A DNA stretch of 32,000 bases from an archaeon (GTDB taxonomy: Archaea > Asgardarchaeota > Thorarchaeia > Thorarchaeales > Thorarchaeaceae), in assembly GCA_024275415.1 (NCBI GenBank), contig JAJRZD010000064.1:1-32000 (forward strand). Reading direction: 5' to 3'. The notes beneath the pieces were generated by a model. It saw only the letters and a list, made by a program, of their open reading frames with translations, did no database searches and was not told the origin of the DNA. Positions 5,313 to 22,973 of this stretch are shown in pieces (position 1 is the stretch's first letter; each line of letters begins with the position of its first letter). The position numbers and the translations under genes are program-made.

Positions 5313-6287
5313 ATGACAATCGCCATTCATGAGTCTGCATTGATACGGCATTTCAATACAAGAAAAGAAACATTGAGAGCTTGGGAAGAAAAGATAGGTG
5401 CACGATTCAGTCCGTTTAGGGGATTCAAAATGCCTGATAGTAGGCTTTATGTCGAACATCCTGATTTTCTAGATTCGATTGTGGATTTGATTATAACCAA
5501 CGAGCGTCATATCTTTTTGAGAGGGCCTGTAGGTAGTGGGAAAAGCACTTTGATGTTGTTGGCATTGCGAGATCTTCCTACACTTGCTGATAGGAGAGGA
5601 AACAAATTCATTACTGGGTATGTAGGAATGACTGGGCTTTATGAAAAGCAGATGAGTGCTGCTATTGCAGATTCGTTGCGCATCAAATATCGAAGATCTT
5701 GGGAGTCGAGCCAAATCATCGAAGCCGTAGCTCAGGAGAGTGTGCGTAGATACATTGAGGAGAAAAGCCGTACTGCTCTGTTCATTGAAGATGTGGCAGA
5801 CAACCAGGAAGCTGCATTTCATAAGCTACGTTATCTCGCAGACCTCCCTACTGAAGAGATGAAAGATGAATATGGGACAACACTTGATGAGCCTGTAGTG
5901 ACTCTAGTCATGTCGGGGACATCAATGTATTGGAATGCTATGTTGTCATTCCTTCCACAGATTGCCGATCGAACCGAACCTCTCGATGTTCCGCCGTTGA
6001 ATGACGATAAAGCAAAAGAATTCATCGGCAGGAGACTCGCTTATGCTAGGGGCGACATCGACAAGTTCGACCCAGATGACTTCAGTATTTATCCGTTTCA
6101 CGATGATGCCATCGTTGTTCTAAATCAAGCTTCAAAGGGAAATCCTCGCGACATTCGGATGTTAGCTCGCGGCTGCCAACAGGTAGCTGCTGAGAACTAT
6201 AAAAGAACTGGCAATCCTGATGTTGATGTAGAGATTGCCACATTGGTTGCAACTGCTTACGAGTATATCTTGAAGGAGGTCAGATGA
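5313..6287 (+). CDS. ExeA-like AAA+ ATPase
   Basis: Walker A GPVGSGKST, Walker B LFIEDV, sensor-like VMSGT, and GNPRDIRML helical bundle. ATG at 5313 follows GAGGT. Confidence 0.8.
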   Translation: MTIAIHESALIRHFNTRKETLRAWEEKIGARFSPFRGFKMPDSRLYVEHPDFLDSIVDLIITNERHIFLRGPVGSGKSTLMLLALRDLPTLADRRGNKFITGYVGMTGLYEKQMSAAIADSLRIKYRRSWESSQIIEAVAQESVRRYIEEKSRTALFIEDVADNQEAAFHKLRYLADLPTEEMKDEYGTTLDEPVVTLVMSGTSMYWNAMLSFLPQIADRTEPLDVPPLNDDKAKEFIGRRLAYARGDIDKFDPDDFSIYPFHDDAIVVLNQASKGNPRDIRMLARGCQQVAAENYKRTGNPDVDVEIATLVATAYEYILKEVR

Positions 6288-6586
6288 TGAGCCTACTAGG
6301 AAAATATAGAAAGGAAGAGGAACGTCGGGATGAAGAAAAACCTCCAGACAGCCCACGGAGTTCAAAGACAAGAAAGAAGACACAGGTACGCTCAACCCCA
6401 GTTGCGGTGCCCAACAAGGAGAGGAGAAGCCCTATAATGTCGTTCAGTGTGACATCGGAACTAAGATCTTGCCTTCAGGCGGTCAGAAATGAAAAGGCCA
6501 TCAATCTTAGTTTGTGGGTAGAAAAGAAACTACGTGAAGCATTGTCTGACGAGTTCCCTCTGATTGCTGATAGATATCTTGAATAA
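6284..6586 (+). CDS. Ribbon-helix-helix protein with disordered, charged N-terminal tail
   Basis: ATGA overlap with the ATPase stop. C-terminal IMSFSV (strand) - TSELRSCLQAVRNEK (helix) - AINLSLWVEKKLREAL (helix) fits the RHH pattern. Confidence 0.7.
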   Translation: MMSLLGKYRKEEERRDEEKPPDSPRSSKTRKKTQVRSTPVAVPNKERRSPIMSFSVTSELRSCLQAVRNEKAINLSLWVEKKLREALSDEFPLIADRYLE

Positions 6587-6597
6587 TACAAGTATTA
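6584..6597. repeat. TAWTAC-N2-GTAWTA palindrome, copy 2
   Basis: TAATAC-AA-GTATTA. Its ends are the TAA stops of the two convergent genes. Confidence 0.75.
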
Positions 6598-16207: not shown

Positions 16208-16225
16208 TTAGAACACATGTTCCAA
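16208..16225. promoter_or_regulatory. 18-bp palindrome WTAGAACACRTGTTCYAA, copy 1
   Basis: TTAGAACACATGTTCCAA. Confidence 0.7.
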
Positions 16226-16300
16226 CAAACAATCATACAAAACAAGACGTAGCGTTAAACAAGATCAACACAACAAAAACAGAAAATGTGGAAAGACAAG

Positions 16301-16322
16301 ACCCCTCTATTTCCTATGGAAC
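16301..16322 (-). promoter_or_regulatory. Origin recognition box (ORB)-like element
   Basis: The minus strand reads GTTCCATAGGAAATAGAGGGGT, a TTCC-N3-GGAA dyad plus G-string as in archaeal ORBs. Confidence 0.75.
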
Positions 16323-16433
16323 TGTATGAATATTGCTTGTAGCAATGACAACTGTATGTATGTATGAAAAATGGAGATAAATGCAATTTGTCAATCTTAT
16401 ATATATAATTTTCTTTTTCTGTTTTTTTTTGAT
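16323..16433. other. AT-rich core (candidate duplex-unwinding element)
   Basis: 16397..16430 is 31/34 A+T. It lies between ORB-like boxes and includes a (TGTA)3 run. Confidence 0.6.
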
Positions 16434-16463
16434 ACCCCATTATTTCCATTGGAAGCAAGGGGG
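16434..16463. promoter_or_regulatory. ORB-like element readable in both orientations
   Basis: Plus strand TTTCCATTGGAAGCAAGGGGG (16443..16463). Minus strand CTTCCAATGGAAATAATGGGGT (16455..16434). Confidence 0.75.
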
Positions 16464-16506
16464 ATTAGTGGTTTCTTCTAGTAACCATCCGAATCCATTA
16501 GCGTTG

Positions 16507-16524
16507 TTAGAACACGTGTTCTAA
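16507..16524. promoter_or_regulatory. 18-bp palindrome, copy 2 (perfect)
   Basis: TTAGAACACGTGTTCTAA. It overlaps the stop codon of the small ORF. Confidence 0.75.
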
Positions 16525-16814
16525 TAGGTGATTTCATCTACAATTTCAAAAACCCGAAGATGCATGATATCGGAATATTCGCTGAATAAAGTGTCAAAGA
16601 CCGATTTGTATTCACTCGGGACAATAATAGCCGAATCAACCACGATCTCAGAGCCTAGACACTCCTCGATCAAACCTGGCTTTCGTTTCTGCCTAATCCC
16701 TGATTTGGTCTTCCACGTATATGTAAATCCATATAGCTCCTTAGTGAACGAAACACGTCTTGCATTAGTCCTGCGAGCTTGTCGAAAATCGTATAGGAAT
16801 AGAAATTTGGCCAA
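16521..16814 (-). CDS. Small hypothetical protein, possibly Cas2/VapD-like ferredoxin fold
   Basis: TTG start at 16814 with GGTGA 5 nt upstream gives MAKFLFLYDFRQ...FTKELYGF...DSAIIVP...LRVFEIV. The start and fold are inferred. Confidence 0.6.
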   Translation of the reverse strand: MAKFLFLYDFRQARRTNARRVSFTKELYGFTYTWKTKSGIRQKRKPGLIEECLGSEIVVDSAIIVPSEYKSVFDTLFSEYSDIMHLRVFEIVDEITY

Positions 16815-16828
16815 GCATATCACCAGCA

Positions 16829-16846
16829 ATAGAACACATGTTCCAA
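16829..16846. promoter_or_regulatory. 18-bp palindrome, copy 3
   Basis: ATAGAACACATGTTCCAA, identical to copy 1 over 17 bp. Confidence 0.7.
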
Positions 16847-16870
16847 ATTTCATTATATGTAATACACCAT

Positions 16871-16884
16871 GTTCCAATGGAAAG
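16871..16884. promoter_or_regulatory. ORB core dyad without G-string (mini-ORB-like)
   Basis: GTTCCAATGGAAAG in the divergent region upstream of the LKR gene. Confidence 0.4.
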
Positions 16885-19598: not shown

Positions 19599-20228
19599 TC
19601 ATTTGCCAACTCTCACTTGGAGTATTGATAGGATTTTCTCAGCGCGCCCAATTTCTTTCTTGACATCCTCAATTTCAGTCTTCAAACGGTACATGTAGCC
19701 AGACCTATTTCCTATTCGTTCTAGATGTCCTTTTCCATTGTTCCACATTCTGGCAAGATATGTTGATGCAGTACTCTTTGGGAGGTTTTCCTCAAACGTG
19801 TTCTGATATATCTCAGTGACATCAAGTGATGAGAATTTGCCATGTTTGAATGACGCGTAGATAACCATCTGGAGCTTTTCAAAGTTACTCATTGACTCGT
19901 AATCTGACTCTTCAATCTCCACATCGCTGGGCTTTTCAGTTGATCTGACGATAGAGCATCCCGTACTAGCTTCCAGAAAAACCTTGAATTTCTCAAGCAT
20001 TTCCTCTATGCTACTACCCTTGACCTGAAAACTTGATTCCTCCCCTGTGACCTCATCTGAAACCACTATTTTGAAATCAAATGGCGCTTCTGCTAACGAA
20101 AGCATTCGTTCGAATCGTTTCAGTGCTTCACCTGGAAGGACGTATCTGCACTGAAATATCTCTCTGGTTTTTGGAGATGAATTGTACGTGAAGGCGTACA
20201 GATAATTAGTTCGTCCTGTATCAGGCAT
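19599..20228 (-). CDS. Hypothetical protein with C-terminal winged helix-turn-helix
   Basis: FSSLDVTEIYQNTFEENLPKSTASTYLARMW..GHLERIGNRSGYMYRL fits a wHTH recognition helix plus wing. Confidence 0.75.
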   Translation of the reverse strand: MPDTGRTNYLYAFTYNSSPKTREIFQCRYVLPGEALKRFERMLSLAEAPFDFKIVVSDEVTGEESSFQVKGSSIEEMLEKFKVFLEASTGCSIVRSTEKPSDVEIEESDYESMSNFEKLQMVIYASFKHGKFSSLDVTEIYQNTFEENLPKSTASTYLARMWNNGKGHLERIGNRSGYMYRLKTEIEDVKKEIGRAEKILSILQVRVGK

Positions 20229-20260
20229 ATCGTTCAGTATCCAAACTATTCTTTGGGGTC

Positions 20261-20689
20261 ATTCACAAAATTAATGCGTTTATATCCAAATAAGTGTGAG
20301 TATGTGAATCGTGTATATCCCAATAAGTACAAGGTATTGCGTACATAGCTATTTTGAGCGTGATAATCACAGATTTCCTTTGTTATGACAACGAAAACGT
20401 TAGAAATCTGCTTAAAGATGTTATTAACGCTTATTTTCGTGGTTTAAGATGATTATCCAATTCCATTAACATTCACACAAATATGGGTGCTGTGAACAAC
20501 GATACCGACCTATCTAAACGCTCCTCTCCGATTTCCAGTGGAAACGAAGGGGTATGATAAATCACAATCAACTGCTTCTTTATACGCTCCCTCTATTCAA
20601 ACTAAGCCATATGACTCCTCTTTTTCTGTCCACCGTTCACAAAAAAGGCGCCATTCACAGATATATACTGTGAACGCGTGATTGTGAAT
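20261..20689. repeat. Array of ten R(T/A)TCACA heptamers in both orientations
   Basis: ATTCACA at 20261+, 20303-, 20471+, 20653+, 20683-; GTTCACA at 20491-, 20635+, 20669-; AATCACA at 20365+, 20560+. Confidence 0.75.
20532..20553 (+). promoter_or_regulatory. ORB-like element
   Basis: TTTCCAGTGGAAACGAAGGGGT closely matches the canonical archaeal ORB (TTCCAGTGGAAAC + G-string). Confidence 0.8.
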
Positions 20690-20713
20690 ACGATTCTGTT
20701 GTGGTACCTTTTC

Positions 20714-21715
20714 CTACTCGATAGGGACAAGATAGTCCGTTTTGCATTCACCTACGACGAGTTGGAGGAACGGGTCTGCACCTTCGATTTGCACAGACTC
20801 TAATCTCCCCCTTGCCTCCACATTCATTCCTTTCATCACATGTTCAGTAAAACGTCCTCGATAACTAATGATTCGCCTGACACCAGGGTTGCTTTGGCAA
20901 CTCACATCATATTCACACGGTGTAAAGATACCCTGTGAATCGTCAATTATCTGACAACGTATCGTTCTTTTTCCAACATATGTATGCTTTGAATACTCGT
21001 ACCTTCTTTTCACTTCGTTTGGATCCTTCACTAACCGAATGAAAAACTCATGATTATGAAAGATGCCCTGTAGAACTTTTGTACCTTCAATCTGATATAA
21101 CCAAGTGTACTGCTCCCCTAGACTTCCCCATCTAAACGTGACATGCCTTGAAAGGGCTTTTCCCGTATACCTTTCCAATTCAGGGATATTTGTTTTCAGT
21201 GCATCATAGGCTGCCCTACAATATTCTTCTCCAAATACAATCAAATCAATATCAGAGTCCTCGGTTGAGAGCCCTGCGAGCAAAGATCCCGTCACTCCAA
21301 ATGAGGAAAGAGGAATTCCCGACACATCAGCGATCCTGTCAGCCAATCTGACAGAATTGCATTCCAACTCATTCAAATGAACTCCTTTGTCACGCAATTG
21401 ACTTAGGCAATCCCTCGGATCTAAAATGAATTTAATATGCGTGTAGGCAACACTTTGCAGTAGACGGTTTGTGTTCTTATCAAACCAGAGGTATTCCGGA
21501 TAGTTCTCTCGAAGAAAATTCTCTCGTTCACCCAAATCATATATCTTCGAGTATCTCATTCCATCCGTTCTGGTGCGTGCTCCATACTCGTCAGGCACAT
21601 ATCGCAGATAAGCTATGAATCTGCCCCGAGGATGAACGACACCCTTTACCTCAAAGATAAGGTCGCTATCCGTGATGATGAAATAGCCTTCACATACAGA
21701 ATCCATTATCGACAT
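20714..21715 (-). CDS. Predicted archaeal nucleotidyltransferase (COG1665-like)
   Basis: LIFEVKGVVHP..RFIAYLRYVP N-terminus and GVTGSLLAGLSTEDSDIDLIVFG Pol-beta NTase motif. The start is trimmed because the ORF-track extension overlaps the divergent gene. Confidence 0.85.
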   Translation of the reverse strand: MSIMDSVCEGYFIITDSDLIFEVKGVVHPRGRFIAYLRYVPDEYGARTRTDGMRYSKIYDLGERENFLRENYPEYLWFDKNTNRLLQSVAYTHIKFILDPRDCLSQLRDKGVHLNELECNSVRLADRIADVSGIPLSSFGVTGSLLAGLSTEDSDIDLIVFGEEYCRAAYDALKTNIPELERYTGKALSRHVTFRWGSLGEQYTWLYQIEGTKVLQGIFHNHEFFIRLVKDPNEVKRRYEYSKHTYVGKRTIRCQIIDDSQGIFTPCEYDVSCQSNPGVRRIISYRGRFTEHVMKGMNVEARGRLESVQIEGADPFLQLVVGECKTDYLVPIE

Positions 21716-21764
21716 ACCAACGACATTACAATTAAAGGCAGTCGGTTGTACTTTCAGGAGTGTG

Positions 21765-22973
21765 ATGCGAATGAATATCCGTTCACATTTTCCTGTCCTC
21801 TCGAAATATCCAGAACTGATATACCTTGATTCTGCAAGCACAACCCTGATACCGGAAGTGGTGATTGAGAGTGTCTGTGAATTTTTGTCATCTATCGTAT
21901 CATCTTCCAGACGTGGGGCACATATGCTAGCAGTACACGGCGGAAGTGTCGTTGAGGATGTAAGAAGGCAACTGGCAAATTTCCTAGGCACCGATACATC
22001 CCAAGTATCATTTCAAAAATCAATCCCGACCGCTGTCGTTTCTTTCGCGTTAGGATACGACTGGAAAGCAAAAGGAAAGGATACCATTTTAGTTGCAGAA
22101 AGTGAAGAACACTCAGTTCTTGTAGCACTTCGAAGATTGTCTGAGATTCTCCATTTGAACTTCAAATTGGTTCCGATAGACCGTAATGGTCATCTAGATC
22201 TCGGAGTTCTAGAAGACCTGCTAGATGACCTCGTGGGCATCGTGGCAATATGTTCTAGAACCTTAGGGTGGGGTGTACAGAACCCCCTTAGAGAAATCTC
22301 CACCTTAGTTCATGATTATGATGTGACACTCATTTCCGACATGAGTCGTTCTTTTGGCTTTGAGCTCCCAGAGATGATCAACACTGGAGTAAATATCGCA
22401 TTTGCATCAGCGAACATGTCCTTTATGGCTCCCCCTGGACTAGTCATCCAATGGACTAATCAACTGACGAACGACCATCACACTCCCGGGATTCTAGGTG
22501 GGTCTGGCGTCACAGATGTGAACTTGGCTGGTTACAATGCAGCACTCCCACCAGATAAATTTGAGTCAGGAATGCTTAACATACCTGCAATCGCAGGACT
22601 TGGTAAAGGGCTAGAGTATCTTACCGGAATTGGAAAGGAACGCATTGAATCTCACTTAACGAAACTAGCCACTAACACCCGTAGACGCTTGGAGTCAATT
22701 TCATCACTGACCCTTTATGGGACTACCACAGAGAATACACCTATTCTTGGTTTTAATCTTGGTTCAGAAGACTTGATTAGTTGTCACGATATTGCGTTGT
22801 TCCTAGACGAGTCAAATATTGCAGTGAGAAGTGGACTCCTGTGTGCCCATCCTCTCGTAAAACAGGTAGCAACAGAAGGGATTATCCAGATGTCATTGAG
22901 CATCTACAATACCCCAGAAGAAATTGACAAAGTAGCTGATACCCTTGAGATTATTGCAAAGGATCTTGTGTGA
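21765..22973 (+). CDS. SufS/CsdA-like class V aminotransferase-fold protein, degenerate at PLP-binding residues
   Basis: IYLDSASTT, PDKFESGMLNI, RSGLLCAHP present. The SGHK motif reads SANM. Confidence 0.85.
   Translation: MRMNIRSHFPVLSKYPELIYLDSASTTLIPEVVIESVCEFLSSIVSSSRRGAHMLAVHGGSVVEDVRRQLANFLGTDTSQVSFQKSIPTAVVSFALGYDWKAKGKDTILVAESEEHSVLVALRRLSEILHLNFKLVPIDRNGHLDLGVLEDLLDDLVGIVAICSRTLGWGVQNPLREISTLVHDYDVTLISDMSRSFGFELPEMINTGVNIAFASANMSFMAPPGLVIQWTNQLTNDHHTPGILGGSGVTDVNLAGYNAALPPDKFESGMLNIPAIAGLGKGLEYLTGIGKERIESHLTKLATNTRRRLESISSLTLYGTTTENTPILGFNLGSEDLISCHDIALFLDESNIAVRSGLLCAHPLVKQVATEGIIQMSLSIYNTPEEIDKVADTLEIIAKDLV

Follow-up and report, generated by a model that had tools for sequence, protein, structure and literature searches.

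A conserved origin recognition box within a TTCACA array near a likely replication origin of Thorarchaeia

What is the function of a gene-free stretch of archaeal DNA in which one origin recognition box (ORB) is surrounded by short TTCACA repeats, a few kilobases from a likely replication origin? The question is raised by positions 20229-20713 (485 bp) of the window analysed here, that is, positions 1-32000 of one contig (C43) in a 3,525,578-bp, 127-contig metagenome-assembled genome of a Thorarchaeota archaeon (G000). This region, which we call the array, lies between the start of a gene for a winged helix-turn-helix (wHTH) protein and the stop of a nucleotidyltransferase-like (NTase-like) gene. 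A reading made from the letters of the window (the sequence-only reading) had proposed that it could be a second or bipartite origin or an Orc1-controlled promoter. The answer we reach, with a probability that we put at roughly 0.6, is that the array is a satellite element of the origin locus, a fixed-geometry platform for Orc1 and the wHTH protein which would autoregulate the wHTH gene and modulate the origin, and which is not itself the start site. This answer is built on observed features: the sites, which are unique, conserved and fixed in their geometry, and which are linked both to the origin and to the wHTH gene.

The ORB within the array, here ORB3, has an exact dyad core at 20533-20545 followed by its G-string, and is the near-canonical box that had been noted at 20532; the exact 13-mer core occurs once in the genome. 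The core belongs to the TTCCAGTGGAAA type and agrees with the Pyrococcus ORB/mini-ORB core printed in PMC1904270. The box is oriented like the right-hand ORB of the origin pair described below, and within the array there was no further core match and no other position weight matrix score above 11. All ten R(T/A)TCACA heptamers previously counted are present between 20261 and 20689. Eight are RTTCACA (20261, 20471, 20635 and 20653 on the plus strand; 20303, 20491, 20669 and 20683 on the minus strand) and two are AATCACA (20365 and 20560, both plus), where genome-wide frequencies predict 0.36 RWTCACA and 0.18 RTTCACA per 485 bp. They occur in both orientations at irregular spacings of 8-168 bp, and include the two inverted pairs already described, ATTCACA-N13-TGTGAAC (20471-20497) and TTCACAG-ATATATA-CTGTGAA (20654-20674). 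The direct repeat TATATCCMAATAAGT is likewise found at 20281 and 20314, though its conservation in relatives is only partial.

The array is the densest heptamer cluster of the genome. No other 485-bp window contains more than five, and the runner-up, with five, lies at C21:62685 within the gene for an 805-aa repeat protein. Nor is there another TTCACA regulon in this genome: pairs of the form TTCAC-Nn-GTGAA number about five per spacing, which is the chance level. A general transcription-factor motif, common to many promoters, was the objection that the sequence-only reading had raised against itself, and it is ruled out by the lack of any other true cluster and by the chance frequency of paired sites.

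Orthologues of the wHTH protein (P0001) were found in 20 of 24 sampled genomes of the same family, and together with the window's own genome these gave an alignment of 21 genomes from many genera. The proposed check of motif conservation upstream of these orthologues gave a clear result, in that nine heptamer positions, ORB3 and a GGCGCC motif are found at matching offsets across the 21 genomes. A variant box, CTCACA at 20294-20299, is also conserved, whereas the heptamer at 20365 is not conserved in relatives. ORB3 lies ∼290-325 bp upstream of the wHTH gene start in every genome, has 16 invariant columns, and its G-string, GGGGT, is invariant. The conserved features are as follows.

20261-20267, plus strand: heptamer H1, ATTCACA, ∼33 bp upstream of the wHTH start codon; TTCACA core invariant in 21 genomes
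20283-20675, no strand: span of constant length within the array, H2′ block through H8, 386-388 bp in 21 of 21 genomes
20288-20309, minus strand: 22-bp block AAATAAGTGTGAGTATGTGAAT, near-invariant in 21 genomes
20471-20497, no strand: inverted pair H3/H4, ATTCAC-N14-GTGAAT; half-sites invariant, spacer sequence variable
20532-20555, plus strand: ORB3, a full ORB with dyad core TTCCAGTGGAAAC and G-string GAAGGGGT; same offset in 21 of 21 family genomes
20560-20566, plus strand: heptamer H5, AATCACA here and ATTCACA in relatives; position kept in 21 genomes
20635-20675, no strand: distal composite TTCACA-N5-GGCGCC-A-TTCACA-N9-TGTGAA (H6, GGCGCC, H7, H8); GGCGCC and flanking hexamers invariant or nearly so
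20683-20689, minus strand: heptamer H9, TGTGAAT, semi-conserved; GTGAAT there in most, not all, relatives

ORB3 is 42 bp from H4, and H5 starts 5 bp past the G-string. The invariant islands of the alignment (ATTCACA; the AAATAAGTGTGAGTATGTGAAT block; ATTCAC-N14-GTGAAT; a 21-bp ORB with ATTCACA 5 bp further on; and the distal composite) have a column identity of 95%, against 43% for the spacers, for which 27% would be expected at random. Because these islands sit in spacers that vary in sequence yet are constant in length, the array points to a set of protein-binding sites of fixed geometry, and not to an RNA or a coding sequence. Two other candidates were considered and rejected. A structured RNA is ruled out by the absence of any Rfam match to the region at E values up to 1 and by the lack of covariation: the RNAalifold covariation term over the 21 sequences was +0.12, and of the 21 predicted pairs, which join the repeated boxes and the ORB and are all invariant or nearly so, 20 showed no compensatory change. 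A hidden gene is ruled out by the open reading frames of the region, none of which exceeds 49 aa, and by the family alignment, in which no 3-base periodicity of conservation was seen.

The islands closest to the wHTH gene have the appearance of a promoter. Read on the strand of that gene, the AAATAAGTGTGAGTATGTGAAT block is ATTCACA-TA-CTCACAC-TTATTT, in which the tandem heptamers H2 and H2′ abut a TATA-like element, and from its position the block is presumably a promoter element of the wHTH gene. H1 lies ∼26 bp downstream of the conserved TTATTT, again reading the minus strand, and would be near the transcription start.

An ORB weight matrix was built from the 21 ORB3 copies. Of the next six best matches in the 3.5-Mb genome, three are packed into 170 bp at 16299-16466 and define the following feature.

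16299-16466, both strands: likely oriC core, with inverted ORBs at 16299-16322 (minus) and 16443-16466 (plus), G-strings outward, around an AT-rich element at ∼16395-16433

A three-ORB layout is shared by 17 of 19 relatives: the inverted pair is 133-149 bp apart, and the third ORB lies 4.07-4.25 kb to its right. When 40-bp windows across the 7.2-kb locus are ranked by stability, the least stable falls between the two inverted ORBs in 13 of 18 genomes; in the rest this interval is within the top 0.2%. As conserved inverted ORBs thus flank the least stable DNA of the locus, the pair is likely to be a classical oriC core of the form ORB, DNA unwinding element (DUE), ORB. By its motif and its constant place in this layout, the array is a satellite third ORB that belongs to the origin locus, 4.1 kb from the core. 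Within the array itself, neither an inverted ORB pair nor a position-fixed melting element was found; its least stable 40-bp window shifts between genomes from −280 to +75 relative to ORB3, and is usually weaker than that of the pair.

The gene next to the array was said to encode a winged helix, and this is borne out.

19599-20228, minus strand: wHTH gene P0001, 209 aa, flanking the array

In the AlphaFold model (pLDDT 85) the N-terminal domain is a duplicated beta-beta-alpha unit; an acidic linker joins it to a winged helix, after which comes a long C-terminal helix. All fold and profile matches are to generic winged-helix regulators (PadR, ArsR, MecI/BlaI, RosR, Sso10a). The Cdt1 C-terminal domain ranks 17th (E 0.014), alongside dozens of unrelated wHTH regulators of similar score, and the winged helices of Cdt1 and Orc1 score no better than other fold matches. 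No Pfam or NCBIfam family passes its cut-off for P0001, and there is no Cdt1, WhiP or Rep family match; weak matches to Penicillinase_R (PF03965) occur in 17 of 32 family members (best E 1.7e-6), with none for P0001 itself. The N-terminal domain has no clear fold match, its best Z of 6.2 being below the usual noise and its top matches being de novo designs and KH tandems. The family forms 63 clusters at 50% identity and is present in 149 of the 201 Asgard genomes searched. We infer that the TTCACA boxes are the binding sites of this neighbouring protein and, since paired TTCAC/GTGAA sites elsewhere are only at the chance level, that its concentrated target would be this locus. ORB3, for its part, would be bound by Orc1/Cdc6; the genome does encode Orc1-type proteins. 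A predicted complex of Orc1-A with the wHTH protein scored 0.00, which is evidence neither way.

The association of these elements extends well beyond the family. We compared 19 more distant Asgard genomes from ∼16 families, and in 18 of them a wHTH homologue lies within a few kilobases of ORBs. An inverted ORB pair, 143-215 bp apart, is present in ∼10 of the 19, a TTCACA/TGTGAA cluster beside the wHTH gene or an ORB in ∼13, and orc1 lies 0.2-6.5 kb from the wHTH homologue in 16. In four genomes (G025, G029, G035 and G052) the array and ORB are the intergenic region between divergent orc1 and wHTH genes, with the elements in the same order as in the window: proximal boxes, ORB, distal boxes. 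The motif TTCACA-N5/6-GGCGC(C) recurs in the homologous regions of G029 and G035, and GCGCC in the Odin-like G026. The order ORB pair, wHTH gene, ORB3 is found in G029, G031 and G035; that in G026 is ORB pair, small open reading frame, wHTH gene, 409 bp, orc1 (C1:622650-625589). In the lineage of G030 and G040, GTTAAC arrays of 8-9 copies, versus ∼0.5 expected, replace TTCACA upstream of the wHTH homologue, which suggests a change in recognition specificity. Because the motif tracks the gene in this way, as expected for such a pairing, the array would be the cognate site of the neighbouring protein. Separately, in G050 and G088, which are closed genomes of another Asgard family, the ORB and a TTCACA cluster (7-8 boxes) remain one unit, situated ∼5 kb from a weak wHTH homologue, on the side away from orc1, and ∼10 kb from orc1.

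In Thorarchaeia the orc1 genes are found elsewhere. One orc1/cdc6 gene is 12-23 kb and the other 60-143 kb from the locus, so that neither adjoins the array, and in a 400-kb stretch of G014 no ORB-matrix match flanks the orc1/cdc6 genes. The main gene, orc1-A (418 aa; C52:570-1826, within the locus C52:570-2000), lies tail to tail with the gene for the PolD small subunit (DP1), as in Thermococcales. Two tandem mini-ORB cores (TCCACTGGAAC and TCCAGTGGAAC) 23-45 bp upstream of its start, with similar cores in G014, look like a site of Orc1 autoregulation. A GGCGCC near the relocated orc1-A on C52 was discounted as chance, as its G014 counterpart is without it. Judging from the shared order of elements, the Thor array is homologous to an ancient divergent orc1/wHTH control region, and it stayed invariant although orc1 moved away.

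These observations can be assembled into a mechanism, in which one Orc1/Cdc6 molecule at ORB3 would sit beside several copies of the wHTH protein at the TTCACA boxes. Bound at H1, H2 and H2′, the wHTH protein would bracket the TATA-like element and its own start site, leading to autorepression. It would also occupy the distal boxes H3-H8, and if the proximal and distal sets were held in register the DNA between them would form a loop or wrap, which would account for a 387-bp span that tolerates only ±1 bp. Bending of the DNA by Orc1 at ORB3, amid the distal set, could then alter the stability of the complex and so couple initiator occupancy to wHTH expression. Finally, the complex might keep Orc1 close to the start site, 4.1 kb away, where the inverted ORB pair and its unwinding element lie, and might modulate that site. 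In bacteria, the initiator-titrating and regulatory loci datA and DARS are clusters of an initiator box and accessory-protein sites away from the start site, and strict phasing is typical of the loops of repressosomes; the comparison is an analogy only, since domain, proteins and motifs differ, and no homology is implied.

The closest documented parallel, by analogy, is the satellite cluster of Pyrococcus. There, Cdc6/Orc1 binds oriC and also a conserved second ORB cluster beyond the origin-adjacent gene, the latter being bound by Cdc6 in vivo and in vitro with an affinity comparable to that for oriC (PMC1904270). As in the Thor locus, the Thermococcales satellite (ORB3 and mini-ORBs in dp1 of P. 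abyssi and P. furiosus; PMC1904270) is a second conserved ORB locus a few kilobases from an ORB-DUE-ORB core. Both lie beyond the origin-adjacent gene, the ORB cores are nearly identical (TTCCAGTGGAA), and each satellite is conserved across an order. The two differ in that the Thermococcales mini-ORBs are inside dp1, whereas the Thor array is non-coding, with one full ORB and no mini-ORBs, and its ORB is embedded in a TTCACA array ascribed to a wHTH protein not yet characterised. Enclosed between core and satellite is cdc6 in Thermococcales, but here the wHTH gene (in Thor together with two dehydrogenase genes).

Two Sulfolobus origins offer looser comparisons. According to one paper, oriC1 needs a non-ORB element, ucm, which is bound by UBP, which it describes as one of the general nucleoid-associated proteins, with hundreds of sites (PMC12141716). 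The likeness is that of an ORB-type origin with a non-ORB element and a non-initiator DNA-binding protein; however, the UBP sites are counted there in hundreds, whereas the TTCACA boxes cluster only at one locus, and we claim no relation of sequence or fold. The sequence-only reading had been reminded of oriC3/WhiP (PMC3607249), where a winged-helix gene, rather than an adjacent orc1, stands beside the origin. This holds as an analogy only: WhiP is Cdt1-related (PMC3607249), whereas P0001 is a generic wHTH protein, to which Cdt1 is one of many weak matches, and the array is without origin hallmarks.

Several points weigh against our interpretation. Assignment of ORB3 to Orc1 and of the TTCACA boxes to the wHTH protein comes from motif identity and co-occurrence. 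As the weight matrix was made from ORB3 copies, ranking ORB3 above the ORBs of the pair within the family is circular. The fixed spacing is the only feature that suggests looping or any effect of Orc1 upon it. For a regulator site to lie 270 bp upstream of a start site is uncommon in archaea, and the platform model leaves the role of GGCGCC unexplained. The GC skew is equivocal too. In the closed Odin-like genome G026 (1,418,269 bp) the only two ORB-matrix matches of at least 15 are the inverted pair, at 622,650 and 622,863; the cumulative skew climbs for 540 kb to this pair, and its detrended global maximum, at 626,157, is 3.3 kb away. However, the same genome has a second sharp peak of raw skew, of similar height, at 1.28 Mb. 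In G014 the skew rises to ∼346-381 kb and flattens past the locus at 378-382 kb; on the window's contig the maximum is near 14 kb, 2-3 kb off; and G047 has no extremum at its locus. The skew is thus supportive but not decisive, and only weakly informative as origin evidence. In the published closed Odinarchaeum chromosome, position +1 was set at a skew minimum as a ‘potential replication origin’ (PMC9246712); the ORB data suggest that the origin of the closed Odin-like genome is at the skew maximum instead.

The most serious alternative is that the array serves transcription alone. The TTCACA boxes would be autoregulatory operators of the wHTH gene, and ORB3 an input of Orc1 to that promoter, ancestrally also to that of orc1, with no role in replication. 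The array lies without exception upstream of the wHTH gene; in G025, G029, G035 and G052 its homologue is the promoter region of the divergent orc1 and wHTH genes; and its proximal boxes bracket a conserved TATA-like element. There is also a precedent, in that Orc1-type proteins are known to act as transcription regulators in Sulfolobales (PMC12490963). On the other hand, the distal half (ORB3, H5-H8 and GGCGCC) is invariant in Thorarchaeia, where it would have been expected to decay after orc1 left if it served only the orc1 promoter. It is hard to see what a regulator would be for if its own promoter were its sole clustered target, and the linkage to ORB pairs is phylum-wide even where orc1 is elsewhere. 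We therefore regard purely transcriptional control as improbable, although it deserves to be kept in mind.

A centromere-like or origin-positioning site is far less probable. Here the wHTH protein would coat the TTCACA array, much as small PadR-like or ParB-like proteins do at centromeres, and segregate or anchor the origin region. The array is indeed the genome's single clustered set of sites and is next to the origin, a winged helix with a C-terminal helix resembles PadR- and Sso10a-type architectures, and the sequence-only reading had noted a candidate pair of ATPase and RHH genes at 5313-6597. Against this, the invariant ORB embedded in the array would have no role, ancestrally its place was a promoter region shared with orc1, and in the other genomes examined the module has no linked partition ATPase, though no systematic search for one was made. 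The weakest alternative is an independent second origin, with the wHTH protein as initiator or loader like WhiP at Sulfolobus oriC3 and ORB3 as an auxiliary Orc1 site: despite an ORB and iteron-like repeats beside a DNA-binding gene in an AT-rich region (∼38% GC), and a least stable 40-bp window of the locus inside the array in 2 of 18 genomes, it is unlikely because there is no partner ORB and no position-fixed unwinding element, and it is further opposed by heptamers of mixed orientation and irregular spacing, unlike the tandem ∼17-22-bp direct repeats at regular spacing of iteron/Rep origins, by a wHTH protein with only generic matches, and by Odin-like genomes that retain the gene and the pair yet are without ORB3, so that we give it hardly any credence. 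Of the earlier proposals, membership of an origin locus and the presence of a promoter region stand, and the second origin is not supported.

Returning to the satellite platform, we think that its complex does more than control a promoter, because the distal half outlasted the departure of orc1 and because the protein is without other clustered targets. Most probably it holds or titrates Orc1 beside the start site, or otherwise tunes firing. More tentatively, and with clearly less than even expectation, the wHTH protein could be an undescribed, Asgard-wide cofactor of replication initiation: from its TTCACA array, adjacent to Orc1 at ORB3, it would license or restrain firing in that it holds Orc1 or MCM, hands them over or sequesters them.

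Some further features of the window and genome are recorded here. Upstream of the array, beyond its gene-free part, are the following.

20714-21991, minus strand: NTase-like gene, 425 aa, upstream neighbour of the array
20911-20940, no strand: further inverted pair of heptamers, ATTCACA-N16-TGTGAAT, within the 3′ part of the NTase-like coding sequence

This extra pair is at an equal offset in several, not all, relatives, and at this position coding constraint and site conservation are inseparable. Around the origin core, the palindrome TAGAACAC(A/G)TGTTCYAA occurs three times (16209-16225, 16509-16525 and 16830-16846), each copy being conserved in relatives, and it is also found at C123:8536-8553 of the same genome. 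A small conserved gene without a Pfam match (118 aa; 16521-16877 on the minus strand) is bracketed by the last two of the three copies; it is probably under the control of the protein that binds the palindrome, or else encodes that protein. The second-best ORB-matrix match of the genome, at C123:8340-8560, is an intergenic ORB-like dyad flanked on each side by a G-string; after it come 70 bp of very AT-rich DNA and the TTGGAACACGTGTTCCAA palindrome. Either a second origin or that of an integrated element could be present here. A second orc1/cdc6 paralogue lies ∼9 kb past the end of the window, at C43:41235-42390 (L002:613-1768). It has an in-frame TAG (L002:1666-1668) within the C-terminal winged-helix domain, where the orthologues of five relatives are uninterrupted, and may reflect a pseudogene, an assembly error or read-through.

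Asgard archaea are the closest known relatives of eukaryotes and, to our knowledge, the start of their replication has not been studied at the level of sequence elements. In the papers found, Asgard origins are placed by GC skew only (PMC11291895, PMC9246712), and nowhere in the literature searched did we see the wHTH family, the TTCACA array or ORBs of Asgard archaea described. The locus offers a testable map, consisting of an ORB-DUE-ORB core, a satellite ORB and a conserved partner protein with a motif of its own, all three phylum-wide. Were the wHTH protein the cofactor suggested above, it would be a functional counterpart of Cdt1 or WhiP, or of bacterial control of the DiaA, SeqA or datA type. 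Should it indeed act together with Orc1, the lineage that gave rise to the eukaryotic multi-subunit ORC/Cdc6/Cdt1 system would have a new origin factor.

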